Shown here in pieces: positions 16,524-39,410 of a stretch of DNA of 64,000 nt; the first letter of the stretch is position 1; each line of letters starts with the position of its first letter. Under the pieces are notes generated by a model. That model was given only the letters and a program-made list of their open reading frames with translations, was not told the origin of the DNA and searched no databases. Source of the stretch: Deltaproteobacteria bacterium (GTDB lineage Bacteria > Desulfobacterota > GWC2-55-46 > S146-80); the NCBI GenBank assembly GCA_015492305.1, contig WGFJ01000140.1, positions 287 to 64,286 of the forward strand, given 5' to 3'. A program made the translations under genes and the position numbers.

Positions 16524-17159
16524 CTACATGTTTTTGTCCACATCTCCAAAGAGTATCATCCTGGTCCTCCACCGCCCTTCAGGGGTCCTGTATGCAAGTC
16601 CATACACCTCCTGCCTACCCCTCCCATGGACCACCTCTATCCGATACTGTCGATAGTAACGTCCCTCCCTGTCCCGGTAGGTCTTTACAGGGGTAACAAC
16701 GACCCTGTAACCATTCCTCTGTGGTGTCCAGACCATGGACTTGCCACTTACATTAAACTCGAGGACCTCATTCACCACATCATCCAGTTCAGTCTGGAAG
16801 GGCAGAGAGAGCGCCGGTTGCCTCACCCTTTCCCTGTCCAGTAACAGGCCTGCCCCAAACCCAAGGATTACCATCACAATCCCTGCAGCGATCCTGATCA
16901 GTCCCGATCTGAGACCGTTCTTCCCACTTTCTACCCTGTGGGACCTTATCCCATCCACCACCTCTTCCGGCACCTCTTCTTCATTCAAAAGCCTCTTCAT
17001 GCTGGCCTTCAGCCTTGCATTCACACATACCGCCTCAAGAAAGCGGGCCCGCACCTCTCCATCCCTTCTCAGGGCCTCTTCAACCTCATCCATCTCCTGA
17101 GGCTCCAGCTCCCCATCGATATAGGCTGAAAGCCTGATCTCATCGACCCTCCTATTCAT
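16524..17159 (-). CDS. anti-sigma factor (single TM) with periplasmic 17-kDa-antigen-like domain
   Basis: N-terminal anti-sigma domain (LSAYIDGELEPQEMDEVEEAL), one TM segment, and a C-terminal domain (…YYRQYRIEVVHGRGRQEVYGLAYRTPEGRWRT) homologous to the C-terminus of the downstream lipoprotein. Overlaps the ECF sigma stop. Confidence 0.7.
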   Translation of the reverse strand: MNRRVDEIRLSAYIDGELEPQEMDEVEEALRRDGEVRARFLEAVCVNARLKASMKRLLNEEEVPEEVVDGIRSHRVESGKNGLRSGLIRIAAGIVMVILGFGAGLLLDRERVRQPALSLPFQTELDDVVNEVLEFNVSGKSMVWTPQRNGYRVVVTPVKTYRDREGRYYRQYRIEVVHGRGRQEVYGLAYRTPEGRWRTRMILFGDVDKNM

Positions 17160-17724
17160 CGTTGCACACCTCCTCAGCAGCCCTGTAACTCCTGGCCCTT
17201 AGGTTGCCGTAAAACAGATCGGCCAGCATCTTTCTGGCCCTCGCAACACGGCTTGCCACAGTTCCTGCTGGTATGCCAAGGATATCTGCAGTCTCTGCGT
17301 AGGAGTATCCCTCCACACATACCAGCATGATGACCACCCTGTGTTCCTCCGGAAGAAGTCCAAAGGCCTTCCTGATATCCAGGGATATATCTATCGGGAC
17401 CTCCCTCCTCTTCCTCTCCATGCCTGCTTCGTAGATGGCATTCCTGTTGTAAAGGTTCTGGGTCCTTGTCCTGCGGAGCCCATCGAGCCAGCAGGTATAG
17501 AGGATCCTGAAGACCCAGCCATCGAAGTTCGTGCCATCCTTGAACTGATCGAAACGGCTGAGGACCTTCTCACAGGCCATCTGAACCAGTTCATCTGCCC
17601 TTTCCCCATCCTTGGCGATACCCATGGCAAAGCGCCGCAGGCGCGGAAGGAGGTCAACAAGCCTGTCCTTGAGCATCTCCTTCCGCACTTTGCCATCCAT
17701 GGAGGGTCCCCCCTGTGACCTCAC
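17152..17724 (-). CDS. RNA polymerase ECF-type sigma-70 factor
   Basis: Sigma-70 region 2 and region 4 motifs (…FDGWVFRILYTCWLD…; LPEEHRVVIMLVCVEGYSYAETADILGIPAGTVASR). Confidence 0.9.
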   Translation of the reverse strand: MRSQGGPSMDGKVRKEMLKDRLVDLLPRLRRFAMGIAKDGERADELVQMACEKVLSRFDQFKDGTNFDGWVFRILYTCWLDGLRRTRTQNLYNRNAIYEAGMERKRREVPIDISLDIRKAFGLLPEEHRVVIMLVCVEGYSYAETADILGIPAGTVASRVARARKMLADLFYGNLRARSYRAAEEVCNDE

Positions 17725-18443
17725 CGGATCCCACCCGGGGCCTGACCGGAAGGTGAGGTGCCTGTAGTCCCTTCTGTTGAACCACCACCTGTTGAACCGG
17801 TTGCACCACCTCCAGTCTGATCAGAGGCGGTTCCGGATGAACCCCAGTTGCCGACAAGTCCAGCCTCCTCGGCAGCCGAGACTGGAGAGAGATCACCGAT
17901 ACCACCTATCCCAATACCTACAGAACCGGGACCACTACCCTGACCCATGGAGTGGCTCTCATCATCGTTGTGGCTACCTCTGGATGAGCTATGGTCATCC
18001 GAGTCGTGCCCCTCATCACTTGAATGATCGTCATCTTCACCCTCATTGTGGTCATCTCCAGAGTGATCATCGTCCTCACCATCGTGGCCTGAACTGTCAT
18101 CGCTGCCATCACCATCGTCATCGCCATCGCTACTGCCGTCGTCATCCCCAGAGCCGCCATCACCACTATCACCATCATCACCACTGCTGTCACCATCGCC
18201 GCTATCACCGTCACCGCCGCCATCACCGTCACCATCCCCACCATCGCCGCCTCCGTCTCCCCCACCATCTCCATCTCCACCATCATCCGCCATGGTTACA
18301 GACTTGGACCATCCCATCTTCTTTGCATCGAAGTGGTATGGAAAGGCAATGATTGCAAGGGCGTAAAAGAACACAAGGAAGGTAAAAACCATCCTCTGGA
18401 CCGGGCCCCTGCAGCTGGCAAAGAGTTCTCTCAACCATGTCAT
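17721..18443 (-). CDS. membrane-anchored low-complexity acidic protein (Asp/Gly/Ser/His-rich), possible metal-binding protein
   Basis: One N-terminal TM helix followed by about 200 aa of D/G/S repeats and an H-D-E-rich block (HDGEDDDHSGDDHNEGEDDDHSSDEGHDSDDH). Same strand as its neighbours and its stop overlaps the ECF sigma start. The alternative frames of the repeat tract give implausible H/R-rich or M/V/T-rich ORFs. Confidence 0.45.
   Translation of the reverse strand: MTWLRELFASCRGPVQRMVFTFLVFFYALAIIAFPYHFDAKKMGWSKSVTMADDGGDGDGGGDGGGDGGDGDGDGGGDGDSGDGDSSGDDGDSGDGGSGDDDGSSDGDDDGDGSDDSSGHDGEDDDHSGDDHNEGEDDDHSSDEGHDSDDHSSSRGSHNDDESHSMGQGSGPGSVGIGIGGIGDLSPVSAAEEAGLVGNWGSSGTASDQTGGGATGSTGGGSTEGTTGTSPSGQAPGGIR
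17990..18290. repeat. imperfect GAT/GGT/GGC-type triplet-repeat tract (coding microsatellite)
   Basis: About 300 bp of 3-nt periodic low-complexity DNA that gives rise to the D/G-rich protein and to the spurious overlapping ORFs on both strands. Confidence 0.7.
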
Positions 18444-18538: not shown

Positions 18539-19633
18539 TTAACCCTGCCGATGCCTGTACCACACATTGCAGGTCCCATCGAAGGATACCATGCAGGGCC
18601 CATAAGGGGTTTGGGGGGTGCACCTCCTGCCAAAGAGGGGGCAGGAGGGAGGATCTATCTTGCCTATCATGATGAGGTGGCAGGAACAGCCAGGGTTGAG
18701 ATCAAGGGAAGGCTCTCTCAAATCGATGGAGAAGCGCTTCCTTGCATCGATCCTGTCATATTCACCCTTCAAGATAAGCCCTGACCTTGGAAGCCTTCCT
18801 ATCCCCCTCCAGTAGGCATCCGAAACGGTGAAGACCTCCGCCATTGCCTCCTTTGCCTTCCTGTTGCCAGCCTCCTTTACAGCCCTCCTGTATGCGTTCT
18901 CACACAGGGCCTTACCATCCTTTATCTGCCTTCCTATCATGAGGATCGCCGTAAGCACATCAACAGGCTCAAAACCTGCCGACACAACAGGCATCCCGTA
19001 TGCCTCTGGGAAGATCCGGTACTCCTCAAGGCCCATCACGGTGGTCACATGACCGGGGATGATGAACCCGTCTATCCTTATATCACCCACACCAAGGAGG
19101 AACTCCATGGCAGGGGGGATGAGTCTGTGGGACACGAGGAAACTCAGGTTCCTGGGCACCCCCTGAAGGATCATGGCCGCCACCCCGCAGGCGGTGGTCT
19201 CGAAACCAACGGAAAAGAAGACCACCTCCTCTGTGGGATTCCTCTCCGCAAGCTGGAGGGCATCGAAGGGGCTGTAAACGATCCTCACATCCCCGCCCCT
19301 TGCCTTTGCATCCAGGAGGGAACCGGAAGGGGTTGGTATCCTCACCATGTCCCCAAAGGTGGCGAGGATCACCCCCTTTTCAAGGGAGAGCCTCATGGCC
19401 ATCTCTATGTCCTCCACAGGGCAGACACAGACAGGGCATCCAGGCCCTGCTATCACCCTGATGGTCGAGGGAAGGAGTTCTCTCAGGCCAAAACGGGCTA
19501 TACTGTTCTCATGGGTCCCGCAGACATGCATGATCCTTATGGACCTTGGCATGGAGAGGGACCTCAGGGCTTCAACAACCCTTTCCACAAGGGCGCTATC
19601 TCTGAAAGGCTCAACAACCCCCATGGTCTTCAA
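18539..19633 (-). CDS. hypD: [NiFe]-hydrogenase maturation factor HypD
   Basis: HypD hallmark motifs MHVCGTHE and GPGCPVCV, plus C-terminal Cys motifs. 364 aa. Confidence 0.9.
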   Translation of the reverse strand: MKTMGVVEPFRDSALVERVVEALRSLSMPRSIRIMHVCGTHENSIARFGLRELLPSTIRVIAGPGCPVCVCPVEDIEMAMRLSLEKGVILATFGDMVRIPTPSGSLLDAKARGGDVRIVYSPFDALQLAERNPTEEVVFFSVGFETTACGVAAMILQGVPRNLSFLVSHRLIPPAMEFLLGVGDIRIDGFIIPGHVTTVMGLEEYRIFPEAYGMPVVSAGFEPVDVLTAILMIGRQIKDGKALCENAYRRAVKEAGNRKAKEAMAEVFTVSDAYWRGIGRLPRSGLILKGEYDRIDARKRFSIDLREPSLDLNPGCSCHLIMIGKIDPPSCPLFGRRCTPQTPYGPCMVSFDGTCNVWYRHRQG

Positions 19634-21503
19634 GGATGGTGGGATCCGGTATCCGCACAGGTCTTATCCCCTCGAGGTCTCCCTCAAGCCCCTCAGGGAT
19701 GTCAAAGCTGCTCCTCACAAGGGAAGGCAGATCTGGAGGAAGGGAAGAGGTTGCCTTCCTGAAAAGCTCTGCATAGAGGGAAAGTTTCTTCCTCCTCCCG
19801 GAAGGGGTATCGTTGTGGCGCATCGTGAGCCTCGGGATCATGTAAAGGGCCTCTTCAAGGGTATGGGCCACATAGAGGAGGCTCGAGGGATGGGTGGTAA
19901 CCTCAAGGGTCTCATCGAGACGGGCATCCCTTATGAGGGACACCTCCTCACCCTCGAACCTTACACCGTATCCCCTTCCCCTTGGCCCGAGAAGCACCGG
20001 GATGCCAAGCCTCATGGCACCGAACAGTGTGGCAAGGGCCTTCTGGGTGAAGCCACCCCACAGGACCAGAAGGGCCCCGACCCTGTTCAATATGTAGTCG
20101 GCTATCCCCCTGTAGTTCCCCTCGATAGGGCGATGGGAGACCACAGAGGCTATCTTTATGCAGGCACCGATGAAGTGGGAGGCAGAAAGGCAGGAACCGA
20201 GGTTCACCAGATTGCCGGCATCGAAATCATCCCCATGGGCCTGGAAGAGAGGGCTACCCTTGCCTATCTCTATGGCCGAACACCCCCCTGTTGCCACCAC
20301 AAAACCCATGGAGAGGAGTTCCCTTGCAAGCCTCTGGATATCCGATGGGTCCTCTTCAGGACAGCCGAAGAGCCCAACAAGTCCCGGTATCTCGCCCATC
20401 ACTATGGAAGGGGCTATCCCCCTTATCTCCCCATCCCTCACAGGGCCTCTGCCTATCCTCAAGATCCCCCTTTCTCCTTCCATCTTCTTACTGTCGAAGC
20501 TGGAGGCAACTATGAGAGAGACCTCTGCCGCCTTTCCTTTATGGAAGATGACCCCCTTCCCCTCAAGGGATAGTCTTTCTGCTGCCTCTTCCGGTGACAG
20601 TGGAGTGAGGTCCTTGAGGCCAAGGACGGTCTCCTGGGCCGTTGCGATGACGGGTATACCCATCCTGCCAGCCGTCTCCACCACATCTGGCCTGATACAC
20701 TGGGTATCGAGGATCACAAGGTCCGCTATACCGGAGGCAACTATGGGTATCTGATCCGCCTGGTTCCCTATGATCCTGAGGCCGTGGTGGTGGCGGGAGA
20801 GATCATGGGCTGCACAGCAAAGCCCCCCGACATCGATCTTCCCCTCAAGGCCCCTCTCCTTCAAGAGCCTCAGGATCTCAACACCCACATGGGAGTTGTG
20901 GCCTATGACAAGGATAAGGGGCCTCCCTTTCCCTCCTATACCAGCAAGGGGGGAGTTGGATTCACCCCTTGGCATACCAAGGGCAGAGATCTGGATCACA
21001 TCACCCACCTCAAGGGCAAGGTTGTCAAGCATACCTGCATGGAGGGCCTTGCTCACAAAGTCAAGAAGCTCCCCTTCCCCACCGTAGTGGATCGATGAGA
21101 GCAGGTGTGCCAGCTCTTCCTCTATGTAGTCTATTATGGCCTCAACCTCACCTGCCCTCTCCGGTCTCGCACCTGTGATGAGGGTGCAGAGGGGGGTCCT
21201 GATGCCACTTTTCCCCATGTCTATAGAAAAGTCCCCGAACCTCTCGGTAAGGTCCCTGAAAACCCTCCTTGCAAGGGAGGTATGTCCTGAAAGACCGATA
21301 ACCACTTGGAGGAGAAGAGCCCTTCCCAGAAAGCCCTCCCTCTTGATACCGCACCTGCCCTTTCCCCCTTCTTTGAAGCTGCATGGACCAAGGGCACAGA
21401 GGGTACAGACCTTCGATGGAAGGGAGAGGTGGGGTTTGTATGTCCTGAGTAGCCTCAGATCCCAGCTTCTAAGGGTGGAGATGTCGGGAAGGCCAGAGAT
21501 CAT
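19611..21503 (-). CDS. Ni-CODH/HCP-superfamily protein, CooS-like (carbon-monoxide dehydrogenase catalytic-subunit family)
   Basis: N-terminal C-x2-C-x4-GPC-x9-CG motif (CTLCALGPC…GRCG) as in CooS B/D-cluster ligands. Later GHN…GLCCAAHDL…DTQCIRP…GGC…GSC blocks align with CooS C-cluster ligand positions. 630 aa. The 3' end overlaps hypD by 23 bp. Confidence 0.55.
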   Translation of the reverse strand: MISGLPDISTLRSWDLRLLRTYKPHLSLPSKVCTLCALGPCSFKEGGKGRCGIKREGFLGRALLLQVVIGLSGHTSLARRVFRDLTERFGDFSIDMGKSGIRTPLCTLITGARPERAGEVEAIIDYIEEELAHLLSSIHYGGEGELLDFVSKALHAGMLDNLALEVGDVIQISALGMPRGESNSPLAGIGGKGRPLILVIGHNSHVGVEILRLLKERGLEGKIDVGGLCCAAHDLSRHHHGLRIIGNQADQIPIVASGIADLVILDTQCIRPDVVETAGRMGIPVIATAQETVLGLKDLTPLSPEEAAERLSLEGKGVIFHKGKAAEVSLIVASSFDSKKMEGERGILRIGRGPVRDGEIRGIAPSIVMGEIPGLVGLFGCPEEDPSDIQRLARELLSMGFVVATGGCSAIEIGKGSPLFQAHGDDFDAGNLVNLGSCLSASHFIGACIKIASVVSHRPIEGNYRGIADYILNRVGALLVLWGGFTQKALATLFGAMRLGIPVLLGPRGRGYGVRFEGEEVSLIRDARLDETLEVTTHPSSLLYVAHTLEEALYMIPRLTMRHNDTPSGRRKKLSLYAELFRKATSSLPPDLPSLVRSSFDIPEGLEGDLEGIRPVRIPDPTILEDHGGC

Positions 21504-21614: not shown

Positions 21615-22013
21615 ATGCGAAGGATAACCGAAAGATGGCTAAAGCAGGCAGAGGCAGACCTTTCTGCAGCAATGGATAGCCTTGAAGATGGGCATTATGA
21701 GTGGTGCTGTTTTCAAGCACAGCAATCAGCAGAAAAGGCCCTGAAGGCCTTTTTATACGAACATGGCTATACATCAGTAATCACCCATTCTTTAAAGGAA
21801 CTTATAAGGGAGTGCTCGAAGATAGAAGGAGGCCTTTCCTCTCTTTCTACAGAGGCAAGGAAACTTGATATGTTCTACATTCCCACAAGGTATCCTAACG
21901 GTCTGGGTGGAGACCTTGCTCCAGTTGAATTTTATGAAGAGGAAGATGCAAGGGAATGCCTAAGCTATGCAGAATCGATATTGAAAGAAGTGAAGAAGTA
22001 CTTGAAGAGTTGA
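21615..22013 (+). CDS. HEPN domain protein (putative toxin/RNase component)
   Basis: HEPN-like helical protein of 132 aa paired with a downstream nucleotidyltransferase. Lies in a local AT-rich islet. Confidence 0.6.
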   Translation: MRRITERWLKQAEADLSAAMDSLEDGHYEWCCFQAQQSAEKALKAFLYEHGYTSVITHSLKELIRECSKIEGGLSSLSTEARKLDMFYIPTRYPNGLGGDLAPVEFYEEEDARECLSYAESILKEVKKYLKS

Positions 22014-22291
22014 AAGGGTTCATCAATAAACTGAAGGAAACCCTCCCAGTGGATGAGGTCTATCTATACGGTTCTTTTGCAAAGGGCCAGGTCCATGAAG
22101 GCAGTGACATTGATCTCATAATAGTGGGTAACTTTCGAGAGAGATTCTTTGAGAGGATAGGAAGGATACTCGACATGACAGATCTGCCTGTAGAACCCCT
22201 TGTCTATACCCATGAAGAGTTTCAAAGGATGAAGGATGAAGGGAATCCCTTTATCAAAGAAGTGCTGAAAGAAGCGAAAAAACTTCTGTAG
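21956..22291 (+). CDS. nucleotidyltransferase (MNT) domain protein, partner of HEPN
   Basis: Pol-beta-like nucleotidyltransferase motif GSFAKG…SDIDL. An alternative TTG start at 22010 would give a 4-bp TTGA overlap with the HEPN stop. Confidence 0.65.
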   Translation: MPKLCRIDIERSEEVLEELKGFINKLKETLPVDEVYLYGSFAKGQVHEGSDIDLIIVGNFRERFFERIGRILDMTDLPVEPLVYTHEEFQRMKDEGNPFIKEVLKEAKKLL

Positions 22292-22356: not shown

Positions 22357-22623
22357 TCAATCATCAAAGCCCGAACCAATCCTTCGCCCCGAGGTGCCGT
22401 AGGGGCTCTGCTCCTGGAAGAGGTCCTCTATCAGATCAAGGGTCTCCCTTGCAGCCTCCTCATCGATCTTACCAATGGCAAAGCCTGCATGGACAAGGAT
22501 GTAGTCCCCCTCCCTCACATCCTCAAGGAGGAGGAGGGATACCTCCCTCTCCACACCCCTGTATTCCACAATCCCTGATCCATCCCTTATCCTCTTCACC
22601 TTCATGGGGATGGCAAGGCACAT
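22357..22623 (-). CDS. hypC: hydrogenase maturation factor HypC/HupF
   Basis: Starts MCLAIP (the essential Cys2). 88 aa. Confidence 0.9.
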   Translation of the reverse strand: MCLAIPMKVKRIRDGSGIVEYRGVEREVSLLLLEDVREGDYILVHAGFAIGKIDEEAARETLDLIEDLFQEQSPYGTSGRRIGSGFDD

Positions 22624-22965
22624 TCAATCCACCTCCATGTAGAGGACCCTCATCTCGTCATCACCTGTAACCCTGAACCGCCTGCCCCTGCAGATGGGAC
22701 AGGAAAATACAAAGCCCTCCACCTCAAACCTGCCACCACAGTCGCTGCACAACCCCTTCACAGGTTCCTTATCCACCTCAAGGAAGGCCGCACTGGCCAC
22801 GGTCCCCTTCTTGAGGGCATCGAAGCAGAAGGTAAGGGAGGAAGGTTCCACACAGGAAAATCCCCCTATCCTCACACTTACCTTCTTCACCCTTGCCACA
22901 CCCTCCCTCCTTGCGTGGTCCTCAACTATCCTGAGGATGCTCCTTGCTATTGCAAGTTCATGCAC
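22624..22965 (-). CDS. hypA: hydrogenase nickel-insertion protein HypA
   Basis: N-terminal MHE motif and a zinc site CxxC…CxxC (CSDCGG…CPIC). 113 aa. Confidence 0.9.
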   Translation of the reverse strand: MHELAIARSILRIVEDHARREGVARVKKVSVRIGGFSCVEPSSLTFCFDALKKGTVASAAFLEVDKEPVKGLCSDCGGRFEVEGFVFSCPICRGRRFRVTGDDEMRVLYMEVD

Positions 22966-23414
22966 CTCCTGACCTCCCTGAGGACAACCTCTGCTGCCTT
23001 CGGAATGGAGGCCTCCACCTCAGGGGTAAGGCCTATCCCCTGACATACCCTGCCAGGTTCTATCCCCACGATCCTCCCCTCAGGCCTCCTCCCTTTCATC
23101 AGGGTAAAGAGGGAGAAGACCTCCCTCAGGTCCACCTCGTGGAGGGAAAGCTTCTGGGCCGTCCTTGATGGGACCTCACTTATGTCGAAGGTGTAGATGG
23201 AGCCAGGCCTTCCACCGCCCCTGAAGGCATCCACCACCACAATACCATCCGCACCTTCAAGGTAAGGGAAGAGCTTGAGGCCACCTGTTCCTCCATCGAT
23301 GGCCTCAACACCTTCTGGCAGGCCCCCCTTTTCCAGGAGGTACTCCACCACCCTGACACCCACAGCCTCATCACCCATGAGGAGATTGCCCACCCCTATC
23401 ACCCTTACCCTCAT
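22947..23414 (-). CDS. hyaD: hydrogenase maturation endopeptidase (HyaD/HybD family)
   Basis: Start moved to the internal ATG (MRVRVIGVGNLLMGDEAVGVRVVE…), which matches the protease N-terminus consensus and abuts the cytochrome b stop (overlap at 23414). The His-rich ORF extension upstream is judged non-coding. Confidence 0.8.
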   Translation of the reverse strand: MRVRVIGVGNLLMGDEAVGVRVVEYLLEKGGLPEGVEAIDGGTGGLKLFPYLEGADGIVVVDAFRGGGRPGSIYTFDISEVPSRTAQKLSLHEVDLREVFSLFTLMKGRRPEGRIVGIEPGRVCQGIGLTPEVEASIPKAAEVVLREVRRCMNLQ

Positions 23415-24061
23415 TACTGCGATCCCCTGACCTTCTTCAGCTTGTACCCTGTGAAGATGGATGTGAAGGTCCTGTCCCTGTCGGTAAGGTCCTTGAGTAT
23501 CCCCATGTATATGTGGACAGGGATGGTGATGATAAAGATCCACATCACCGCAAAGTGGATGAGTCTTGTTACAGGCATACCTCCCAGAAGCCTGTTCACC
23601 CATCCGAAGGCGGCCTGAGAATCAAAGAGGCCAAAAACACTGCCGCTGTAGAGGGCAAAGCCTGTGAAGATCTGGACGATTATGAGGAGTCCCCACACAA
23701 AGTAGGTGAGGGCCTGAAGGGGGTTGAACCTCTCGTAGTCCTTGTGGGTATCCTTGAGGAAGAGATAATAACCCAGGATATCGGGTATATCCCTTATGAG
23801 GCTCCACCTTGGCAGCAGGGCACCGATATCGTTGAAGTATATGTAGGCTATGAGGCTCAGGATGAGGATGTACATGGAGAGGAAGTGGAGGAACCTCATC
23901 CAGCTCATCAGGTAACCACCCTCACTCCCTGGGATGAAGGGTGCATAGATGTAGTACCCGGTGAAGATGAGGACGAAGATGGCGATGGCCCTCACCCAGT
24001 GGTTTATCCTGTATGCAAGGTTCCACTCATAGACAAGCTCGTATCTCTCCTTAGCCATCAC
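23414..24061 (-). CDS. hyaC: Ni/Fe-hydrogenase b-type cytochrome subunit
   Basis: Four-TM cytochrome b (…NHWVRAIAIFVLIFTGYYIY…) placed after the large subunit. Confidence 0.85.
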   Translation of the reverse strand: MMAKERYELVYEWNLAYRINHWVRAIAIFVLIFTGYYIYAPFIPGSEGGYLMSWMRFLHFLSMYILILSLIAYIYFNDIGALLPRWSLIRDIPDILGYYLFLKDTHKDYERFNPLQALTYFVWGLLIIVQIFTGFALYSGSVFGLFDSQAAFGWVNRLLGGMPVTRLIHFAVMWIFIITIPVHIYMGILKDLTDRDRTFTSIFTGYKLKKVRGSQ

Positions 24062-24068
24062 CCACCTC

Positions 24069-25661
24069 CTACGAGACCCTGAACCTGTAGACCTCGTTTG
24101 TTTCAGGGTCTATTATGTGGACGGTACAGGCGATACAGGGATCAAAGGAGTGAACAACCCTGAGGACCTCAAGGGGCCTCTTGGGGTCCACCACAGGTGT
24201 TCCAATGAGGGCCTCCTCAATGGGTCCCCTCACCCCGTTCCCATCCCTGGGGGAGACATTCCACGCCGTGGGGGTGATCACCTGATACCTTTCGACCCTG
24301 CCATTCTTCAGGGTGTACCAGTGGCCAAGGGCACCCCTCGGTGCCTCCCACAGACCCACCCCTTCACCTGAATCAGGTGGTTCGTGGGGGGTAAACATCT
24401 CCTTCCTTCCGGCCTTGAGATTCTCGATGAGTTCCATGGTCCACTCCACCATGGAATCGGCTATGAGCTTTGCCTCAAGGGCCCTTGCAGCTGCCCTTCC
24501 AAGGGTGGACATGAGGACATCGTATCTTCCGGAAAGGCCAAGTCTGTCAAGGGTATTATCTATGAGGGTCCTTGCCTTCTCCCTCCCGGACACATAGGCA
24601 ACGAGCATCCTCGCCAGGGCCCCTACCTCCATGGGCCTGTCTCCAAGCCTCGGTGCCTTCGCCCAGCTGTATTTGGCCTCGGTGTCGTAACCTGTAAAAT
24701 CGGGCTCTGTCACACCTTTGCTTGGGTGGAGGGCCGGCCCGTCCTTGTACCAGCTATGGGTCACATGTTCCCTCACATCCTCCTGGTTTACCTCATTGCG
24801 CTTGAGTTCCCAGTTGTATATGGCACCCATGGGGAGGGTCCTCTTTGTGGGATCGAAGCTCTTGTCCTCAAAGACTCCCCAGGCAAGGAAGTTTCCAACA
24901 CCCTTTCCGATGGTGGCATACTCCAGGTAGTAAGGCGCTATGGCTATTACATCCTCCACAAAGACCTCATCTATCCACTTCTGTATCTTCTTGAGCCTGA
25001 AGAGGAAGTTCTGGAGATCCTCAACACCAGGGGTGCATGTCACCCCTCCAGGTGGTGTCCCCTGGATCATGGGCATCTTCCCGCCGAAGAAGGCAGAAAG
25101 GTGAGAGGCCTCAGCCTGCATCTCAAGGGCCTCAAGGTAATGGGCCACAACAAGGAGGTTCAGATCAGGTGGGAGCTTGTATGCAGGATGGCCCCAGTAG
25201 GCGTTTGCAAAGGGACCGAGTTGTCCGCTCTCCACAAAGGCCTTGAGCCTTGCCTGGACATCCTTCAGGTACTTTTCGCGGGGCAGGGCATTTAGAGCAC
25301 TCACAACATCCACATAGTCAAGCCCGTTCAGGTGGTAGAACCAGAGGATATGGGAATGGAGGAACTGGGAACCTTCCACAAGGTTCCTTATGATCCTTCC
25401 ATTGTCAGGGGGCCTTATGCCGTAGGAATCCTCAATGCACATGGCTGATGTATGGGCATGGGAGGTGGGGCAGACCCCGCAGATCCGCTGGGTGAGGATC
25501 CACGCATCCCGCGGATCCCTTCCCTCAAGGATGATCTCAAACCCCCTGAAGAGGGTTCCAGAGGTCCATGCATCCTTCACCTTGCCATCTTCCACCTCAA
25601 CCTCTATGCCGAGATGGCCCTCTATCCTGGGGATGGGATCTATGACTACCCTCTTTGCCAT
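24069..25661 (-). CDS. hyaB: [NiFe] hydrogenase large subunit, group 1 (membrane-bound uptake type)
   Basis: N-terminal RIEGH, the L1 motif RICGVCPTSH, and C-terminal DPCIACTVH followed by a cleavable tail. Confidence 0.9.
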   Translation of the reverse strand: MAKRVVIDPIPRIEGHLGIEVEVEDGKVKDAWTSGTLFRGFEIILEGRDPRDAWILTQRICGVCPTSHAHTSAMCIEDSYGIRPPDNGRIIRNLVEGSQFLHSHILWFYHLNGLDYVDVVSALNALPREKYLKDVQARLKAFVESGQLGPFANAYWGHPAYKLPPDLNLLVVAHYLEALEMQAEASHLSAFFGGKMPMIQGTPPGGVTCTPGVEDLQNFLFRLKKIQKWIDEVFVEDVIAIAPYYLEYATIGKGVGNFLAWGVFEDKSFDPTKRTLPMGAIYNWELKRNEVNQEDVREHVTHSWYKDGPALHPSKGVTEPDFTGYDTEAKYSWAKAPRLGDRPMEVGALARMLVAYVSGREKARTLIDNTLDRLGLSGRYDVLMSTLGRAAARALEAKLIADSMVEWTMELIENLKAGRKEMFTPHEPPDSGEGVGLWEAPRGALGHWYTLKNGRVERYQVITPTAWNVSPRDGNGVRGPIEEALIGTPVVDPKRPLEVLRVVHSFDPCIACTVHIIDPETNEVYRFRVS

Positions 25662-26725
25662 TACTCCTCACCCCCTTCCTTCTTGCCCTTTGTCCTGCCC
25701 TTCAGGGCTGAAGCCACAAAGTGGATACCTATGCCAGCAGCCGTTGCAACACCAAGGGTGGCACCTATCTTGTCTGCCGTATTCTCCACACCCTTGAAGA
25801 TGGGGATGGCAACACCTGGCAGTGCAGCCCTGAAGGGGCTGAAGGCATCAGGCCATCCAGGCTCGGTACAGCCTGTGCACCCGTAGCCTGTCTGAACACA
25901 CCAGCTTATCTTGTCGTTCCACCTCACAAGGGGACAGTTTGAAAAGGTATTCGGTCCCTTGCAGCCCATCTTGTAAAGGCATTTCCTCTCCCAGGCCTCC
26001 TCTGAACCGAACTCCTCCACAAAGACACCCTGATCGAAGTGGGCCCTCCTCGGACAGTTGTCGTGTATCCTTGTACCGTAGATCATCTTTGGCCTTCCAT
26101 ACCTGTCCAGTTCAGGAAGCCTTCCGAAGAGGAGGTTGTGGACGATGGTGGCAATCACCCATTCAGGGTTGACAGGACATCCCGGAAGATTCACCACCTG
26201 CCTCCCGAGGTACTCCCCGACCCCCTTGATACCGGCAGGGTTCGGCCTTGCCCCTGGCACCCCTCCATAGGTGGCACATGCACCGATGGCTATTATGGCC
26301 TTCGCCTTTTCAGAGGCCTCCTTCAGGATATCCATCATATCCCTTCTCCCTATCATCCCGTATCCACGCTTCGTGGGGACCCCTCCCTCTACGATGAGGA
26401 AGTAACCCCCTTCTTCTATGGATCTCTTCAGGATCTCTTCTGACTGGGTGCCTGCTGCAGCCATGATGGTCTCATGGTAGTCGATGCTCAGGATGTCAAG
26501 GACGAGTTCGGCAGCAGATGGATAGGTGGCTTTGATCACCGATTCGGTGCATCCTGTATCGGATGCGAAGTGGAGCCACACAACGGAAGGTCTTCTGGAG
26601 GCCTTCTCTATGGCCGATGCAATCTTCGGGATGTAGAGGTCGGAAAGGCCGAGCATGGAGGCAAGGAGCCCGCAGAACCTGAGGAACTCCCTTCGGTCAA
26701 GCTCTTTCAAAAGATAGTGCTTCAT
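25661..26725 (-). CDS. hyaA: [NiFe] hydrogenase small subunit, group 1, Tat-exported
   Basis: Twin-arginine signal (RREFLRF), Fe-S cluster cysteines, and a C-terminal hydrophobic anchor. Start set at MKHYLL, which has an AAAGGAGGGGG ribosome-binding site. Confidence 0.9.
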   Translation of the reverse strand: MKHYLLKELDRREFLRFCGLLASMLGLSDLYIPKIASAIEKASRRPSVVWLHFASDTGCTESVIKATYPSAAELVLDILSIDYHETIMAAAGTQSEEILKRSIEEGGYFLIVEGGVPTKRGYGMIGRRDMMDILKEASEKAKAIIAIGACATYGGVPGARPNPAGIKGVGEYLGRQVVNLPGCPVNPEWVIATIVHNLLFGRLPELDRYGRPKMIYGTRIHDNCPRRAHFDQGVFVEEFGSEEAWERKCLYKMGCKGPNTFSNCPLVRWNDKISWCVQTGYGCTGCTEPGWPDAFSPFRAALPGVAIPIFKGVENTADKIGATLGVATAAGIGIHFVASALKGRTKGKKEGGEE

Positions 26726-26807
26726 ACACCCCCCTCCTTTCAGCAAACGGTCCTAATACACCTGCCTCAACAGTCTATCACCTCCTTCCTCAAAGGACTT
26801 TTTTAAA

Positions 26808-26835: not shown

Positions 26836-28116
26836 TTAATCCCTTCTTATTTCAACCTTCAGGAGATGGGTGGAACAGGATATGCAGGGATCGTAGTTCC
26901 TTATGGTCTGTTCACTCCTGAAGGTGAGTTCCTCCTCTGCCATGTGGAGGTTCATCTCCACAAACTTCCTCAGGTCCTCCTCCATGACCCCCTGGTTCTG
27001 GGAGGTGGGTGGAACTATCTTTGCATCCCTTATTATGCCCCTACCGTCTATGGTGTACCTGTGGTAGAGTATCCCCCTTGGAGCCTCGGTGCATCCGTAT
27101 CCAGTGCCTTCCCTGACCTCAAATTCAATCGATGCCTCCCCTGGCTCTTCATACCCCTCAACGATACCCACTGCCTCATCGAAGGCATGGAGTATCTCAA
27201 TGGTCCTCACCACTATGGAAAGGAAGGGATTCCTGCAGGGAGGGACAAGACCCACCTCCCTTGCAATCTCCCTTGCAATGGGCCTCAACCTCTCGAAGTT
27301 CAGGTTGAACCTTGCAAGGGGTCCAACAAGGTAATGGCCCCTTTCCTTCAATCTGGAGTGGAGGGCCGTTGAATGGGGGACCTGCTCCTCCACGAAGTGG
27401 TCGTCATAATCCCTCACATCTATGTCAAGGCCCTTGTTCGAGACAATCCTCCCCTCATTCATGGGGTATTCATCGGGATGGGAGAGGGCCACAAACTCGT
27501 AGTCCCTCTCAAGATCAGGGAAGGGCAGGGTCGAAGCCCATCTCACCATCTCCACCGCCAGATCCCTTCCCCTTTTGAGGTCCTCAAGTATCCCCCTGAG
27601 CTCCTCCTTCCCCGGCACCCTGTAGAATCCCCCCACCCTGAGGTTCACAGGGTGGATCTCCCTCCCACCCACAAGGGCCACAAGGGCATTGCCTATGCGC
27701 TTTAGATTCAGCCCTTTCTCCACCACATCCCTGTGGTCCCCTGCCATCTCCATGGCGCTCTGGTAACCAAGGAAGTCAGGGGCATGGAGGAGGAAGACAT
27801 GGAGGGCATGGCTCTCGATCCACTCCCCGCAGTAGATAAGCCTCCTCAGGGTCCTGAGACCGCCGCCCACCTTCACACCCAGAAGGTCCTCCATGGCATG
27901 GGATGAGCTCATCTGGTAGGCCACAGGGCATATGCCACATATCCTTGCCGTTATGTCAGGGGCCTCGTCGAAACGTCTGCCCCTCAGGAAGGCCTCAAAG
28001 AACCTTGGCGGTTCAAAGATGTTCAACCTCACCTCCTGCACCTTCCCGCCCTTCACCCTCACATAGATCCCTCCCTCACCTTCCACACGGGCAAGGTTAC
28101 CCACCTTTATCCTCAT
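26836..28116 (-). CDS. [NiFe] hydrogenase large subunit, group 3b (sulfhydrogenase alpha-like)
   Basis: RICGICP…H motif and C-terminal DPCISCSTH. Size of 426 aa matches the short cytoplasmic group-3 type. Confidence 0.85.
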
Positions 28117-28892
28117 GCCCCCTCCCCTTCAAAGGACCTTGCAAAGGGTGCAAGGGCCCCTTCTATGTTGAAGGTCCTGAGTCTCCTTACAAGTTCCTCC
28201 CTCTCCATGCCGTATCTTTCGATCCACCATCTGCCAAGGGATTCCATGTTCACCGTCTCCGAAGGGCCGTAACATCCGTAGCACCCCCTCCTGTAGGAAG
28301 GACAGATGGCACCGCAACCGCCATGGGTCACGGGTCCCATGCAGGGCACCCCCTCTGATACCATGACGCAGACATTGTCCTTCATCTTGCACTCAAGGCA
28401 CAGGCTGTGGGAGGGGATGCTGGGGGTGCGACCGTTAAGGAGGGAGATCAGGACATATAGGAGCTGGTGCTTGTTTATGGGGCAACCCCTCAACTCAAGG
28501 TCAACCTTCACATGATGGGATACAGGGGTTGAATCCTTAAGGGTATCGATGTACTCGGGCCTTGCATACACAAGGGATGTAAACTCCTCAACATCCCTCA
28601 GGTTCCTCAGGGCCTGTATCCCCCCTGCCGTTGCACAGGCCCCTATGGCTATGAGGTACCTTGAGGCCCTCCTTATCCTTTTTATCCTTTCCACATCATG
28701 GGGTGTTGTGATGGAACCCTCTACAAGGGAGATGTGGTATGGCCCCTTCTCAACCCTTCGTGAGGCCTCAAGGAAGTAGGCCACCTCCACCGCCTCTGAA
28801 AGGGGCAGGAGTTCCTCCTCGCAGTCAAGGAGGCTGAGCTGGCACCCGTCACAGGAGGCAAACTTCCACACAGCAAGCCTTATCTTCCTCAT
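28113..28892 (-). CDS. [NiFe] hydrogenase small subunit, group 3b (delta-like)
   Basis: N-terminal CDGCQ, proximal and distal Fe-S cysteines, 259 aa. Overlaps its neighbours by 4 bp. Confidence 0.8.
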
Positions 28893-29713
28893 ACCTCCTT
28901 CCTCCAGATGAGTTCCTTCACCGTGTCATACCTGAAGACAGGACCATCCTTACACACAAAGTAGGGTCCAAACTGACAGTGGCCGCAAAGCCCTATGGCG
29001 CACTTCATATTCCTCTCCATGGAGAGGAATATCTTCTCCTCCTTCAGTCCTGCCTCCATAAGGGCCCTCACGGTAAAGCGCATCATCACCTCGGGTCCAC
29101 ATACCATGGCTGTTGTGTGGTATGGATCGAAGCGGGCCCTCTCAATAAGGGCCGTTACCACACCAACATTGCCCTTCCATGTGGAGGATGCGGAATCCAC
29201 GGTCACATCCACATACATGTCGAACCTCCCCCTCCACCTGTGGAGTTCCCTCTTGTAGAGGAGGTCATCCGGTGTCCTTGCACCGTAGAGGAGGAGGAAT
29301 CTGCCAAAGTCCTTCCTCCTTGAGAGGACATCGTAGACCACAGGCCTTAAAGGGGCAAGCCCAACCCCCCCTGCCACAAGGAGGATATCGTCACCCCTGG
29401 CCTCATCCACAGGCCATGGGTTACCAAAGGGCCCCCTCACGCCTATGGGGTCCCCCTTTTTCAGTCTCCCTATAAGGCCCGTGACAGAACCCACCATCCT
29501 CACCGTATGGACCACCCTGTCCATCTTTCCAGGGTCTCCGCTTATGGAGATGGGCACCTCCCCTGCACCAGGGAGGTAGAGCATGTTGAACTGACCCGGC
29601 CTGAACCGGAAGGGCCTCCCGTAGCCTTCCAGGGTAAGGGTCACAACATCCCCTGTCTCCCTCCTTATCTGTCCTACAGAGAGGATGGCTGGAATGAGGG
29701 GGTGGCCCATCAC
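28889..29713 (-). CDS. sulfhydrogenase gamma-like FAD/NAD(P)-binding subunit with [2Fe-2S] site
   Basis: PyrK-like oxidoreductase fold with C-terminal [10 protein letters not shown]. Confidence 0.75.
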
Positions 29714-30180
29714 CTTCCCTTTGGAGATCCGTAGACATCAAGGAGCTGCAGCCTTGTTGCCTGGAGCCTCTTATACATGATGTAGCTGAAGCGTTTCAGG
29801 AACTCATAGCCGAGTTCGTGGTCCTCCTCGCACTTCTTCCTGAGACAGTTGCCGTCAAGGGCAAGGGCCCTTGTGAGCTCCAGTGCCCTTGCATCAAAGA
29901 TCCAGTGGTATGGAGGTATGAGCCAGGAAAAGCCAAGGATGTCACCGTCATGGAGGGTCTGGATGGTTATGGGTGGCCTTCCCGGCACCCCTATCTCGAT
30001 GGCCACCCTCCCATACCTGATGAGGTAGAAGTAGTCTGCCTCCTCCCCTTCACGGAATATGTACTCCCCTTCGTTGAACCTCACATTCCTTGCACAGGAA
30101 ACGATCCTCTTCAGGATATCCTCCCTAAGCCCCTTGGAGAAGGGATGTTCCCTTAAAAGGCGCTCAAGATCCTCCATCAT
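29710..30180 (-). CDS. cyclic nucleotide-binding domain protein
   Basis: cNMP-binding beta-barrel motif (FREGEEADYFYLIRYGRVAIEI). ATG start at 30180 overlaps the upstream stop as ATGA, and the stop overlaps the gamma-subunit start. Confidence 0.6.
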   Translation of the reverse strand: MMEDLERLLREHPFSKGLREDILKRIVSCARNVRFNEGEYIFREGEEADYFYLIRYGRVAIEIGVPGRPPITIQTLHDGDILGFSWLIPPYHWIFDARALELTRALALDGNCLRKKCEEDHELGYEFLKRFSYIMYKRLQATRLQLLDVYGSPKGR

Positions 30181-31271
30181 CCACCTCCCTTTCTCAATTC
30201 CTCCACCACCTCGGTAATGTCTATCCCCACAGGACACCATGTTATGCACCTGCCACACCCCACACACCCAGGGGTGCCGAACTGATCTATCCAGGTGGCA
30301 AGCTTATGGGTGATCCAGTGGCGGTACCTTGAAGCTATGGAAGAGCGGATACTCCCTCCATGGAGGTATGTGAAGTCAAGGGTGAAGCAGGAATCCCATC
30401 TCTGCCACCTCTCTGCCGATCCATCGAGGGCCATCCTGTCCTCAAGGGTGGTACAGAAGCAGGTGGGGCACACAAAGGTGCAGTTCCCGCAGGCAAGGCA
30501 CCTCTTTTCCACATCCCTCCAGTATGGATGATCATGGCTCCTGTAGAGGAGTTCCTTGAGTCCATCCCTCTCAAGGGCCCTTCCCATCCTCCCCTTTGCC
30601 CCTTCGATAAGCCCCTCAGCCTCCCTTATCTGCGCTGGAGAGGCCTCCATCGATGGTATCCTCTCCAGAAGGCCCTTTCCCCTCTGTGAGCCTGCCTGTA
30701 TGAGGAAGTAGTGCTCCTTGCCAGAGACCTCTGTGAGGATGAGGTCGGCACCATCTCCTACCTCTGGGCCTGTCCCCATGGACAGACAGAAACATGTACC
30801 CCCTGGATGGGTGCAGTTCACCGCTATTATGAGGCTTTTCTCCCTCCTCCTGAGGTAGTGGGGGTCCCTGTACTCACCTTCTAAAAGGACCCTGTCCCGG
30901 ATGGAGATCCCTGCTACATCGCAGGGTCTTACAAGGAAGGCAAACCCCGGATCATCCCCATCCTCCTCTTCAACCCCTCTTCCATCGGATGAGACCCTGA
31001 AGAGGAGCCTTTCAGGGGGATTGAGAAAGTATTTCGGTGAACCCGGACCAACCGCGTAACCGAAAAAGAGATCCCCTTCCTGTCTCAGACGATACCTACC
31101 TGCCCCCTGCTCATCCCTGTATCCCTCGGGCAGGTCCCCTATGGACCCTATCTCCCCGTAGTGTATTGCACCATCCCTTACAAGGGGACCCACGACCGTG
31201 TAACCCTCTTCCCTGAGGGCCCTTAAGAGCCCTTCAAGGCCTTCCTTTCCTATCACCCTTACGGTCATCAT
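30177..31271 (-). CDS. sulfhydrogenase beta-like 4Fe-4S subunit
   Basis: Ferredoxin-type cysteine clusters (CLACGNCTFVCPTCFC; GCVGCGRCITWCP). 364 aa. Confidence 0.75.
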   Translation of the reverse strand: MMTVRVIGKEGLEGLLRALREEGYTVVGPLVRDGAIHYGEIGSIGDLPEGYRDEQGAGRYRLRQEGDLFFGYAVGPGSPKYFLNPPERLLFRVSSDGRGVEEEDGDDPGFAFLVRPCDVAGISIRDRVLLEGEYRDPHYLRRREKSLIIAVNCTHPGGTCFCLSMGTGPEVGDGADLILTEVSGKEHYFLIQAGSQRGKGLLERIPSMEASPAQIREAEGLIEGAKGRMGRALERDGLKELLYRSHDHPYWRDVEKRCLACGNCTFVCPTCFCTTLEDRMALDGSAERWQRWDSCFTLDFTYLHGGSIRSSIASRYRHWITHKLATWIDQFGTPGCVGCGRCITWCPVGIDITEVVEELRKGGG

Positions 31272-36979: not shown

Positions 36980-37082
36980 GGACCACCTCCTTCTGGAATC
37001 TCGCCAAGATTATAGCATCCCTTCTGCAGAAGGACAAGTGAGGGCAGGATCCGTTGATGATGAAATCAAAGGCAAAAGGTGG

Positions 37083-37088
37083 TATAGT
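37083..37088 (+). promoter_or_regulatory. putative extended -10 (TGgTATAGT) immediately upstream of ku
   Basis: TATAGT preceded by TG and ending 6 nt before the ku ATG at 37095, which implies a leaderless transcript. The -35 is poor. Confidence 0.25.
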
Positions 37089-37094
37089 TATGGT

Positions 37095-37862
37095 ATGAAG
37101 GCGATCTGGAAGGGAAGCATAACCCTTGCCCTGGTGAGCATCCCTGTCAAGGTCTACGGGGCCACCCACCACAGGGGCATAAGCTTCAGGCTCCTCCACA
37201 GGCCCTGCTCTACCCCCTTGAGATACGAGAAGTTCTGTCCCACCTGCAACAGGGAGGTTGGAAGGGAAGAGATAGTCCATGGCTACGAATACGAGAAGGG
37301 GAGGTTTGTGACCATCACCGATGAAGAGCTTGAAAAGGTGGCCATCAAGACCTCCAAGGCCATAGAGATCCTGAAGTTTGTGGATCCCAGGGAGGTGGAA
37401 CCCACCTTCTACGACAGGGCCTTCTACCTTGAACCCCAGGAAGGGGGTGAGAGGGCCTACACCCTCCTCAGGGAGATCATGAGGATGACCGACAAGGTAG
37501 GTCTTGCAAAGATAGCCATGAGGGAGAGGGAGCACATAGGGGTGATAAGGATCTGGGGGAAGACGCTCGTCCTCCACACCCTTTACTACGCGGACGAGGT
37601 CATGAGGCCAGAGGCCCTGCACATCCCAGAGGGAATCCGTCTCGAAGAGGAGGAACTTTCCCTTGCAAGGGAACTGGTCAAGCACTTCACAGGCCCCTTT
37701 GACATCGAGAGATACCACGATGAGTTCAGGGAATCCCTCATGGAACTCATAAGGGCAAAGATAGAAGGTAAGGAGATAAAGGTCCCCCCGAAGAGGGAGG
37801 TCGAGAAGGTTGTAAGCCTCATGGAGGCCCTGAAGAAGAGCCTGGAAAAGAAGGCGGTATAG
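37095..37862 (+). CDS. ku: Ku protein (non-homologous end joining)
   Basis: Canonical N-terminus MKAIWKGSITLALVSIPVKVY. The upstream ORF-track GTG extension was rejected. Confidence 0.9.
   Translation: MKAIWKGSITLALVSIPVKVYGATHHRGISFRLLHRPCSTPLRYEKFCPTCNREVGREEIVHGYEYEKGRFVTITDEELEKVAIKTSKAIEILKFVDPREVEPTFYDRAFYLEPQEGGERAYTLLREIMRMTDKVGLAKIAMREREHIGVIRIWGKTLVLHTLYYADEVMRPEALHIPEGIRLEEEELSLARELVKHFTGPFDIERYHDEFRESLMELIRAKIEGKEIKVPPKREVEKVVSLMEALKKSLEKKAV
37818..37858. repeat. 41-bp direct repeat, copy 1 (encodes the Ku C-terminus)
   Basis: CTCATGGAGGCCCTGAAGAAGAGCCTGGAAAAGAAGGCGGT is identical to 38438-38478. Confidence 0.95.
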
Positions 37863-38437: not shown

Positions 38438-38478
38438 CTCATGGAGGCCCTGAAGAAGAGCCTGGAAAAGAAGGCGGT
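38438..38478. repeat. 41-bp direct repeat, copy 2 (encodes the LigD C-terminus on the minus strand)
   Basis: Identical to 37818-37858. The minus-strand translation …PPSFPGSSSGPP* forms the ligase C-terminus. Confidence 0.95.
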
Positions 38479-39410
38479 GTGAGGCACTCTTCAGGTCCCT
38501 TATCATCCCTTATGCCCTTGAAGGAAGGGGCCCTGAGTTTCCCATCCACAGTCCACTCCTGAAAGGAGACCCTTACCACCATCTCGGGCCTGCACCAGAA
38601 GACCCTCCTCTTCAACCTCGGTTCCACCTCAAAGGGGCAACTCCCTGTTGCAAGCCTCTTCAGCCTCTTGTTGATCACCTCCATATCCCTTGCATCGAAG
38701 CCTGTTCCCACCTGTCCGATGTGGACAAGCCTCCCTTTATGAAAGAGGCCAAGGACAAGGGAGCCAAAAAGACCCCTTCTCTCCCCCTCACCCTCAAGGT
38801 AACCGCACACAACGGCATCCACATCCATCACCCCCTTCACCTTGAGCCAGTAGCTCGACCTTACTCCGGGCAGATAGGGGCTATCCTTCCTCTTTGCCAT
38901 TATCCCCTCGAACCCAAGGGAAAGTGCCTCTCTGTAAAGGGCCTTTCCCCTTGGATAGACCTCCGAGAGGATCACATTCTCACCAAGGGGAAAAAGCCCT
39001 TCAAGTATCCTTCTCCTCTCCACAAGGGGCATCTTCATCAGGTCCTTTCCATCTATGGAGAGGAGATCGAAGACCACATATGTAGCAGGCAGGATACGGG
39101 AAAGGATCTCCACCCTGAAGGGATCCTCCACATGCTCCCTTTCCTGGAGCTTCCTGAAGTCTGGCCTCCCACCTTCAAGGACCACTATCTCACCATCAAG
39201 GATGGCTGAAGATGCCCTCAAGGATGCGGGAAGATCCCGGAACTCTGGATACCTCCTGGTTATGTCCAGGAGCCTCCTGTTCTGCAGCCTGACCCTCCCC
39301 TCCTCAACAAAGGCAATGCACCTTGTGCCGTCCCACTTCAGTTCATAGAGGTAGTCCTCTGAATCTATGGGAGGGGAAGACAGGGCAAGCATGGGGCGGA
39401 TCTGCTTCAT
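38439..39410 (-). CDS. ligD: ATP-dependent DNA ligase (LigD ligase-domain-only type)
   Basis: Adenylation motif I (ELKWDGTRC) and the downstream ligase motifs. 323 aa with no polymerase or phosphoesterase domains. Confidence 0.85.
   Translation of the reverse strand: MKQIRPMLALSSPPIDSEDYLYELKWDGTRCIAFVEEGRVRLQNRRLLDITRRYPEFRDLPASLRASSAILDGEIVVLEGGRPDFRKLQEREHVEDPFRVEILSRILPATYVVFDLLSIDGKDLMKMPLVERRRILEGLFPLGENVILSEVYPRGKALYREALSLGFEGIMAKRKDSPYLPGVRSSYWLKVKGVMDVDAVVCGYLEGEGERRGLFGSLVLGLFHKGRLVHIGQVGTGFDARDMEVINKRLKRLATGSCPFEVEPRLKRRVFWCRPEMVVRVSFQEWTVDGKLRAPSFKGIRDDKGPEECLTPPSFPGSSSGPP

Follow-up and report, generated by a model that had tools for sequence, protein, structure and literature searches.

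A putative CdhA-type CO dehydrogenase encoded between hypC and hypD: a genomic lead on how anaerobes may obtain the CO ligand of hydrogenases

The 64,000-nucleotide stretch of contig WGFJ01000140.1 analyzed here (the window) carries a hydrogenase maturation (hyp) operon in which one open reading frame (ORF) encodes a homologue of the nickel-dependent CO dehydrogenases (Ni-CODHs). This ORF, referred to as X, spans 19611-21503 on the minus strand and encodes 630 aa, and its stop codon overlaps hypD. The anaerobic origin of the CO ligand of [NiFe]-hydrogenases was named the field's most pressing open question in a 2025 review, in line with an earlier reading of this DNA (the original prediction), which had treated that source as open (PMC12134894). 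Judged from gene order, the hypC-X-hypD arrangement appears to be a strong and specific genomic lead on this recognized question, with the linkage covering part of the X family only.

Genes at the hyp locus

The genes around X were assigned as follows.

18539-19633, minus strand: hypD, [4Fe-4S] scaffold for Fe(CN)2CO assembly (PF01924, 3.4e-138; TIGR00075, 439 bits, cut-off 193)
19611-21503, minus strand: X (PF03063; TIGR00314; PDB alignments; family alignment A1; AlphaFold2 model and Foldseek)
21615-22013, plus strand: HEPN (PF05168, 8e-35)
21956-22291, plus strand: MNT-type nucleotidyltransferase (PF01909, 5e-13)
22357-22623, minus strand: hypC, Fe-binding chaperone with N-terminal Met-Cys (MCLAIPMKV) (PF01455, 1.7e-27; TIGR00074)
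22624-22965, minus strand: hypA, nickel metallochaperone, 113 aa (PF01155, 1.9e-31; TIGR00100, 104.5 bits, cut-off 88)
22947-23414, minus strand: HycI-type hydrogenase maturation endopeptidase (PF01750)
23414-26746, minus strand: structural genes of a periplasmic uptake-type [NiFe]-hydrogenase (PF01058 + PF14720, PF00374, PF01292)
23414-24061, minus strand: cytochrome b
24069-25661, minus strand: [NiFe]-hydrogenase large subunit
25661-26746, minus strand: [NiFe]-hydrogenase small subunit with RREFLR twin-arginine motif
26836-31271, minus strand: second, cytoplasmic, group-3b-like [NiFe]-hydrogenase operon (Pfam families of the called genes)

The original prediction had a CODH gene at 19611-21503 overlapping hypD by 23 bp, and both the ORF and the overlap were found. 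The overlap measures 23 nt from the TTG at 19633 that opens the longest hypD ORF, or 14 nt (ATGGGGGTTGTTGA) from the ATG at 19624 used in the public gene calls, and the junction has the sequence ...GAAGACCATGGGGGTTGTTGA. X is probably translationally coupled to hypD. The prediction had also placed X between hypC/hypA and hypD; this was correct on the hypD side, but X is not directly adjacent to hypC, as the HEPN and MNT ORFs intervene on the opposite strand. HEPN/MNT is a toxin-antitoxin-like local insertion that lies outside the system; the 67%-identical and otherwise syntenic locus L021 is without this pair. A promoter and terminator scan around X returned sites no more frequently than shuffled sequence did and thus gave no evidence on X-hypD transcription after the insertion. 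An Rfam scan of the window yielded zero matches. HEPN/MNT-like pairs also adjoin hypD in locus L049 and, twice, in locus L024.

Neither Pfam scans of the main ORFs nor tblastn with the HypB, HypE, and HypF proteins of locus L001 detected hypB, hypE, or hypF in the window, and the absence of the three genes asserted by the original prediction was upheld. The Pfam scans likewise detected no acetyl-CoA synthase (ACS)/CdhB-E, CooF, or CooC gene in the window. The second hydrogenase operon encodes a large subunit, a small subunit, a NAD/FAD Fe-S subunit, a cNMP-binding protein, and a Fer4_22 subunit. This subunit composition points to group 3b, and the enzyme is likely an additional client of the hyp genes. 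The cNMP-binding-domain gene (155 aa, approximately 29710-30177) lies between the Fer4_22 and NAD/FAD Fe-S subunit genes and is unusual for such an operon.

Directly downstream of hypD, 17721-18443 on the minus strand encodes a 240-aa protein with a hydrophobic N-terminus followed by a very acidic, Asp/Gly/Ser/His-rich low-complexity region and with no Pfam match. It is followed by an ECF sigma factor (17152-17724) and a possible anti-sigma protein (16524-17159). This acidic protein/sigma module is missing from L021, where thiS-moaE comes directly after hypD.

Family, fold, and active site of X

X matched the Pfam family PF03063 (Prismane/CO dehydrogenase) with E = 4e-46. Among the NCBIfam models, the best was TIGR00314 (cdhA) with 545 bits, under its cut-off of 781, whereas the CooS model TIGR01702 scored 72 bits against a cut-off of 478; the "CooS-like" or "CooS-type" label of the original prediction was therefore abandoned. 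The nearest solved structures were CdhA chains (8riu, E = 9e-131, then 9c0q and 3cf4), to which X aligned in two stretches with approximately 94 CdhA residues skipped between them. Residues 333-342 of X span residues 375-469 of 8riu, the ferredoxin-like insert with the E and F [4Fe-4S] clusters, which is missing from X. Fer4 Pfam domains were present in CdhA homologues, and PF03063 stood alone in the 55 closest full-length relatives of X. The AlphaFold2 model of X (27 family members) had a mean pLDDT of 80.9 and a pTM of 0.84, and CODHs made up all the top Foldseek matches to this model, with TM-scores of 0.73-0.75 for CdhA and 0.44-0.50 for CooS. On these results, X belongs to the archaeal-type CdhA lineage (clade A) as a truncated form of structural group A-3 and is not of the CooS type.

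Structural group A-3 (Inoue et al. 2019, clade A; representative OGW06734) comprises seven members, two from "Deltaproteobacteria" and five from Nitrospinae metagenome-assembled genomes (MAGs), and was given neither a function nor a context (PMC6344411). The D-cluster cysteines that it lacks are likewise missing in groups A-2 to A-6 (PMC6344411). Group A-3 and X are alike in having no D-cluster cysteines and no E or F cluster, a full H-C-C-C-C-C C-cluster, and both acid-base residues, His and Lys; A-3 is bacterial only and never found with ACS, and X likewise has no ACS in the window. In a neighbor-joining tree with CdhA as outgroup and without support values, X fell in one clade with the A-3 members OGP32043 (L010), OGP47341 (L007), and OGW12281 (P0043, L014), apart from CdhA. 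X differs from the A-3 members of 2019 in lying in a Nitrospirota subclade outside that set, with only 43-48% identity. At the protein level, X extends the already catalogued but uncharacterized CODH group A-3 by a new member from a Nitrospirota subclade. An exhaustive hidden Markov model search of 1.84 billion cluster representatives returned just 84 at E <= 1e-30, a handful of them full-length short forms, and the X family is therefore rare.

CdhA, the alpha subunit of the archaeal acetyl-CoA decarbonylase/synthase (3cf4, 9c0q, 8riu), shares its B- and C-cluster ligands and its acid-base residues with X. In contrast to CdhA, X is without approximately 35-40 residues at the N-terminus, the two D-cluster cysteines, and the approximately 94-residue E/F insert, and it is not encoded with cdhB, cdhC, cdhD, cdhE, or the epsilon subunit in the window or in any related locus examined. 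In X, S30 and T34 take the place of the D-cluster cysteines C73 and C77 of CdhA (C-x2-C-C motif).

The metal ligands of X were assigned by aligning its motifs with those of CdhA and D. vulgaris CooS, not from a metal-bound structure, and their conservation was read from alignment A1 (27 family sequences, 43-67% identical to X). The B-cluster cysteines are C33, C36, C41, and C51 (C-x2-C-x4-C...C), the C-cluster ligands are H202 (GHN), C229/C230 (LCC), C269 (DTQC), C381 (FGCPE), C408 (GGC), and C438 (GSC), and the acid-base pair is H74 (SGHT) and K488 (TQKA); all of these are invariant in A1. In ChCODH-II, one His and five Cys hold the C-cluster (H261, C295, C333, C446, C476, and C526). The corresponding motifs in CdhA and D. 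vulgaris CooS are GHN, LCC, (D/Y)QC, VGC(N), TGC, GSCV, and SEKA, and K488 of X lines up with the lysine of the SEKA motif in D. vulgaris CooS. Every motif named in the original prediction was present (C33-x2-C36-x4-C41...C51, GHN, GLCC, DTQC, GGC, and GSC), and one C-cluster cysteine had been omitted from it, namely C381 in FGCPEE. With all ligands invariant, its placement of X in the Ni-CODH family with a complete C-cluster, and in neither HCP nor a degenerate clade, was borne out.

Ligand loss does occur among short CdhA-like proteins. In P0150, P0157-P0161, and P0167 (630-760 aa), most C- and B-cluster ligands are lost, and these lineages may be pseudo-CODHs; P0141 has kept the cysteines, with GHD replacing GHN. 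Because other short CdhA-like paralogues have lost ligands, their retention in X is meaningful and not automatic, and the intact active site of X is under selection. Two suspected features of X were rejected. A nickel-ligand cysteine and a catalytic lysine had seemed to be missing (VGALLV against VGACG in CdhA, and GPRGRGY against GPHxxKY); this suspicion was dropped because the VGACG cysteine is not conserved in genuine CdhA and the real equivalents are C438 and K488. The C-terminal ...HGGC was considered as a HypE "PRIC"-like end, and its cysteine is not conserved in the family.

A C-cluster-like site could also carry out other chemistry of the Hyp pathway, such as cyanide or thiocyanate handling or storage of Fe-S clusters or Ni, in which case X would not be a true CO/CO2 enzyme. 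Cyanide and thiocyanate are known CODH ligands. Nine positions only set the X family consistently apart from CdhA, and two of these adjoin C-cluster ligands and would suit such a role: S204 (GHN-S against GHN-V in CdhA) and A441 (GSCVS-A-SH against GSCVS-N-AH in CdhA, with GSCVDN at this site in CooS). Both substitutions are kept in all three clades of the family described below, whether hyp genes are nearby or not. The existence of degenerate short CdhA-like paralogues would also fit, as would that of non-CODH enzymes such as HCP in the Prismane superfamily (PMC6344411). However, all residues known to be necessary for CO/CO2 catalysis are invariant, the acid-base His and Lys included, and the nearest structures, with the TM-scores of 0.73-0.75 given above, are active CODHs. 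We consider this alternative very improbable. The residues and fold of X suggest a Ni,Fe-CO dehydrogenase of minimal, monofunctional design that descends from the archaeal CdhA lineage, presumably with nickel in its active site.

Conservation of hyp linkage in relatives

Related loci were gathered from genomes (17 loci), from metagenomes (20 loci), and from contigs for eleven specific proteins, and their neighboring genes were annotated via tblastn, Pfam, and NCBIfam. The genome and metagenome scans each used two peptide patterns only, so the locus counts are lower bounds. In the neighbor-joining tree, the X family fell into three clades, N, D, and S. Clade N (Nitrospirota/Thermodesulfovibrionia) comprises eight distinct proteins with the window included, the others being 54-67% identical to X; clade D ("Deltaproteobacteria"/Thermodesulfobacteriota groundwater MAGs) is 45-50% identical and clade S (Nitrospinota) 42-43% identical to X. 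The gene orders were as follows.

Clade N, window: hycI-hypA-hypC-[HEPN/MNT]-X-hypD
Clade N, L021: hycI-hypA-hypC-X-hypD
Clade N, L050: hycI-hypA-hypC-X-hypD-hypE-hypF
Clade N, L053: hypA-hypC-X-hypD
Clade N, L001 and L049: hypA-hypB-hypF-hypC-X-hypD
Clade N, L054: hypF-hypC-X-hypD
Clade N, L002: X-hypD only
Clade D, L010/L040 and L011 (46-47% identity): hypA-hypC-X-hypD, hydrogenase structural genes not nearby
Clade D, L005 (with hycI-hypA), L029-31, and L038: hypC-X without hypD
Clade D, L033 and L039: hypC, one unrelated ORF, X, without hypD
Clade D, L003 and L006-L009: ubiA-X-arsS (convergent), no hyp
Clade D, L052: X beside cbiG, no hyp
Clade D, L004: X divergent from a group-3 hydrogenase large subunit
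Clade S, all loci with upstream flank: purM-X, in most then a 217-aa ORF, no hyp

In clade N, hypD lies immediately downstream of X in all eight cases and hypC immediately upstream in six of them. Seven of the eight X-hypD junctions overlap, by 14-23 nt, and the eighth, in L053, has a 45-nt gap. The hypC-X-hypD core persists while the outer hyp genes are shuffled, and in the window's Nitrospirota lineage X is a fixed part of the hyp operon, between hypC and hypD. The original prediction had X occupying the slot of hypB, hypE, or hypF. This idea was discarded: relatives also carry hypB and hypF upstream (L001 and L049) or hypE and hypF downstream (L050), and because they encode those genes as well, X is no stand-in for them.

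In clade D, each hypC starts with MCLAIPMKI, like genuine HypC. In clade S, the upstream neighbor of X, a 348-aa AIRS/AIRS_C gene, was considered as HypE and rejected, being PurM (TIGR00878, 407 bits); clade S is without a hyp link because its AIRS-domain neighbor is PurM. Hyp-operon membership of X is thus kept across lineages, in eight of eight cases in clade N and in part of clade D, and not in clade S. The original prediction had made linkage in related genomes its test, and X passed this test for two of the three clades: linkage held in clade N and part of clade D. It is not universal, being absent from clade S and about half of clade D. Read from this distance tree without support values, the simplest history would place the hypC-X-hypD order in the ancestor of clades N and D and have it erode later in D.

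The same gene orders bear on the proposal that X is an ordinary stand-alone small CODH of unrelated role, kept in hyp operons for its own Ni insertion by HypA/HypB without CooC. The window was found to have no CooC gene, hypA is located two genes upstream of X, X lies away from hyp genes in many genomes, and Inoue et al. 2019 linked another CODH group, D-1, with HypA and HypB (PMC6344411). Yet hypF and hypC separate X from hypA/hypB in L001 and L049, L002 retains X-hypD only, and several loci retain hypC-X only. This explanation is weakened because the conserved neighbors of X are hypC and hypD, which encode the Fe(CN)2CO scaffold, and not the genes of the Ni chaperones HypA/HypB, and we regard it as unlikely.

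Several observations concern the surroundings of X in its relatives. A recurrent backbone in clade D (L003, L006-L009, L024, L025, L034-L036, and others) consists of an ornithine/diaminopimelate decarboxylase, a UbiA prenyltransferase, and X, after which come an ArsS-like radical SAM protein encoded in convergent orientation (TIGR04167, 468 bits) and then a protein resembling CMD/AhpD. At the same spot of this backbone, hycI, hypA, and hypC come and go among the members of the clade. Short HypA proteins of 80-88 aa are encoded beside hypC-X in L010 (9546-9788), L011 (9531-9773), L005 (1791-2042), and L050 (1097-1363), compared with 113 aa for the HypA of the window; the Ni-binding MHE at their N-terminus is retained, and the C-terminal zinc-finger part is apparently missing. 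Elsewhere in the window, Ku (37038-37862) together with an ATP-dependent DNA ligase (38439-39410) looks like a bacterial nonhomologous end-joining pair, and a PolX-family polymerase with a PHP domain is encoded at 47725-49473.

A proposed role in CO supply to HypC-HypD

HypC and HypD together bind the iron that receives two CN ligands and one CO ligand during assembly (PMC12134894). CO2, formate, and formyl groups have been discussed as sources of the CO ligand, with no enzyme named, and the weak ATPase of HypCD has been speculated to power CO2 reduction (PMC12134894). Free CO at approximately 10 nM suffices for incorporation and outcompetes the endogenous precursor, and aerobes use a dedicated extra CO-producing enzyme, HypX; CODH is not mentioned in the 2025 maturation review from which this background is taken (PMC12134894).

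The explanation we favor, which gene order and the intact active site suggest and which we hold as a serious possibility somewhat short of probable, is that X acts as a minimal CODH in the CO2-reducing direction and provides the HypC-HypD scaffold with CO. Electrons would enter X via the B-cluster from a presumed donor, the C-cluster would reduce CO2 to CO, and the CO would move to the iron on HypC-HypD and become the single carbonyl of Fe(CN)2CO. The nickel of X might plausibly be loaded by the adjacent HypA. By Nernst reasoning, the effective CO2/CO potential at nanomolar CO would lie far above the standard value of -520 mV. Because trace CO is enough and the potential would be less negative, a single B-cluster with a ferredoxin or similar donor could suffice. 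In a stricter form, X would be a dedicated anaerobic CO synthase docking on HypC-HypD, a two-cluster Ni-CODH making the carbonyl ligand in situ from CO2; this form seems possible but slightly more doubtful.

Several lines of evidence speak for CO supply by X. Thirteen residues are invariant across 27 members, which argues for an active site under selection. The hypC-X-hypD order is found in clade N, and hypA-hypC-X-hypD also in clade D. The window has no ACS/CdhB-E, CooF, or CooC, and X has lost the D, E, and F clusters that serve external redox partners. By analogy, HypC-HypD builds Fe(CN)2CO, CO2 is among the sources discussed, and HypX would offer a precedent.

The intact active site and the location of X must also be weighed for CO oxidation. 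X could remove CO as an inhibitor or mis-ligand, or it could supply HypD, at its [4Fe-4S] cluster and cysteine pair, with electrons of low potential for reductive cyanide transfer. CO inhibits [NiFe]-hydrogenases competitively and could bind as a mis-ligand in cofactor assembly, and its oxidation runs at approximately -520 mV. CODHs are reversible, and co-transcription with hydrogenase and hyp genes would fit protection; the physiological electron donor to HypD is, moreover, an open issue in the field (PMC12134894). A protective enzyme, however, would be expected beside the structural genes, whereas X lies between hypC and hypD even in hyp-only operons (L010, L011, and L049). The electron-donor role needs a CO supply, and none is evident; no CooF or other acceptor was found in the 64-kb window. 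CO oxidation therefore seems an improbable role for X.

Several points weigh against CO supply by X. The linkage is not universal, as all Nitrospinota members lie beside purM and about half of clade D is without a hyp neighbor. No CooC Ni-insertion ATPase gene was found in the window, and without D, E, and F clusters there is no apparent electron route into the B-cluster. The active-site neighbors S204 and A441 differ consistently from CdhA, and every X-family sequence comes from a MAG or metagenome contig, that is, from uncultured sources. X is no general solution: to our knowledge, such a gene is missing from most anaerobes that possess [NiFe]-hydrogenases, among them E. coli. [quoted passage not shown]

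Comparison with known systems places X close to HypX in logic. Both are extra hyp-operon genes beyond hypA-F, and CO for HypCD is the product of HypX and the proposed product of X (PMC12134894). HypX is unrelated to X in fold and chemistry, converts N10-formyl-tetrahydrofolate via formyl-CoA to CO, and is O2-tolerant; X would be its anaerobic, CO2-based counterpart. The coo/ECH clusters (CooS-CooF-CooC, some with hypA or hypD near, for example, in Thermincola potens) resemble the X locus in having a Ni-CODH near hydrogenase or hyp genes. Their enzymes are clade F CooS proteins with a D-cluster, accompanied by CooF, CooC, and a group 4 hydrogenase for CO-driven H2 production, whereas X is Cdh-type, has no CooF/CooC, and sits inside the hypC-hypD pair by uptake-type and group-3b-like hydrogenases. 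A 2025-26 preprint on CODH genomic context tied clade A to ACS only and found hydrogenase and maturation genes mostly with clade F. A full-text literature search, with most subscription journals outside its coverage, found no paper discussing a CODH between hypC and hypD. In the supplement of Inoue et al. 2019, a table shows one hypA-hypC-CODH-hypD cluster (GWC2_42_11) by its COG numbers, and the paper does not discuss it (PMC6344411). By analogy with hypX, a hyp operon with an embedded Cdh-type CODH would represent a new variant of the Hyp maturation machinery.

In several lineages, an enzyme of a CO2/CO-interconverting family is wedged between both scaffold genes, with start and stop codons coupled to its neighbors, and this location makes the question of the anaerobic CO-ligand source experimentally concrete. 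If CO supply by X is true, X would be the first identified enzyme of anaerobic CO-ligand biosynthesis, on a second route that evolved independently of HypX. X would also offer the smallest natural Ni-CODH, with B and C clusters only, for studies of CO2 reduction. Even if limited to some Nitrospirota and related groundwater bacteria, this role would mean that CO from CO2, free or channeled, can serve the anaerobic pathway.

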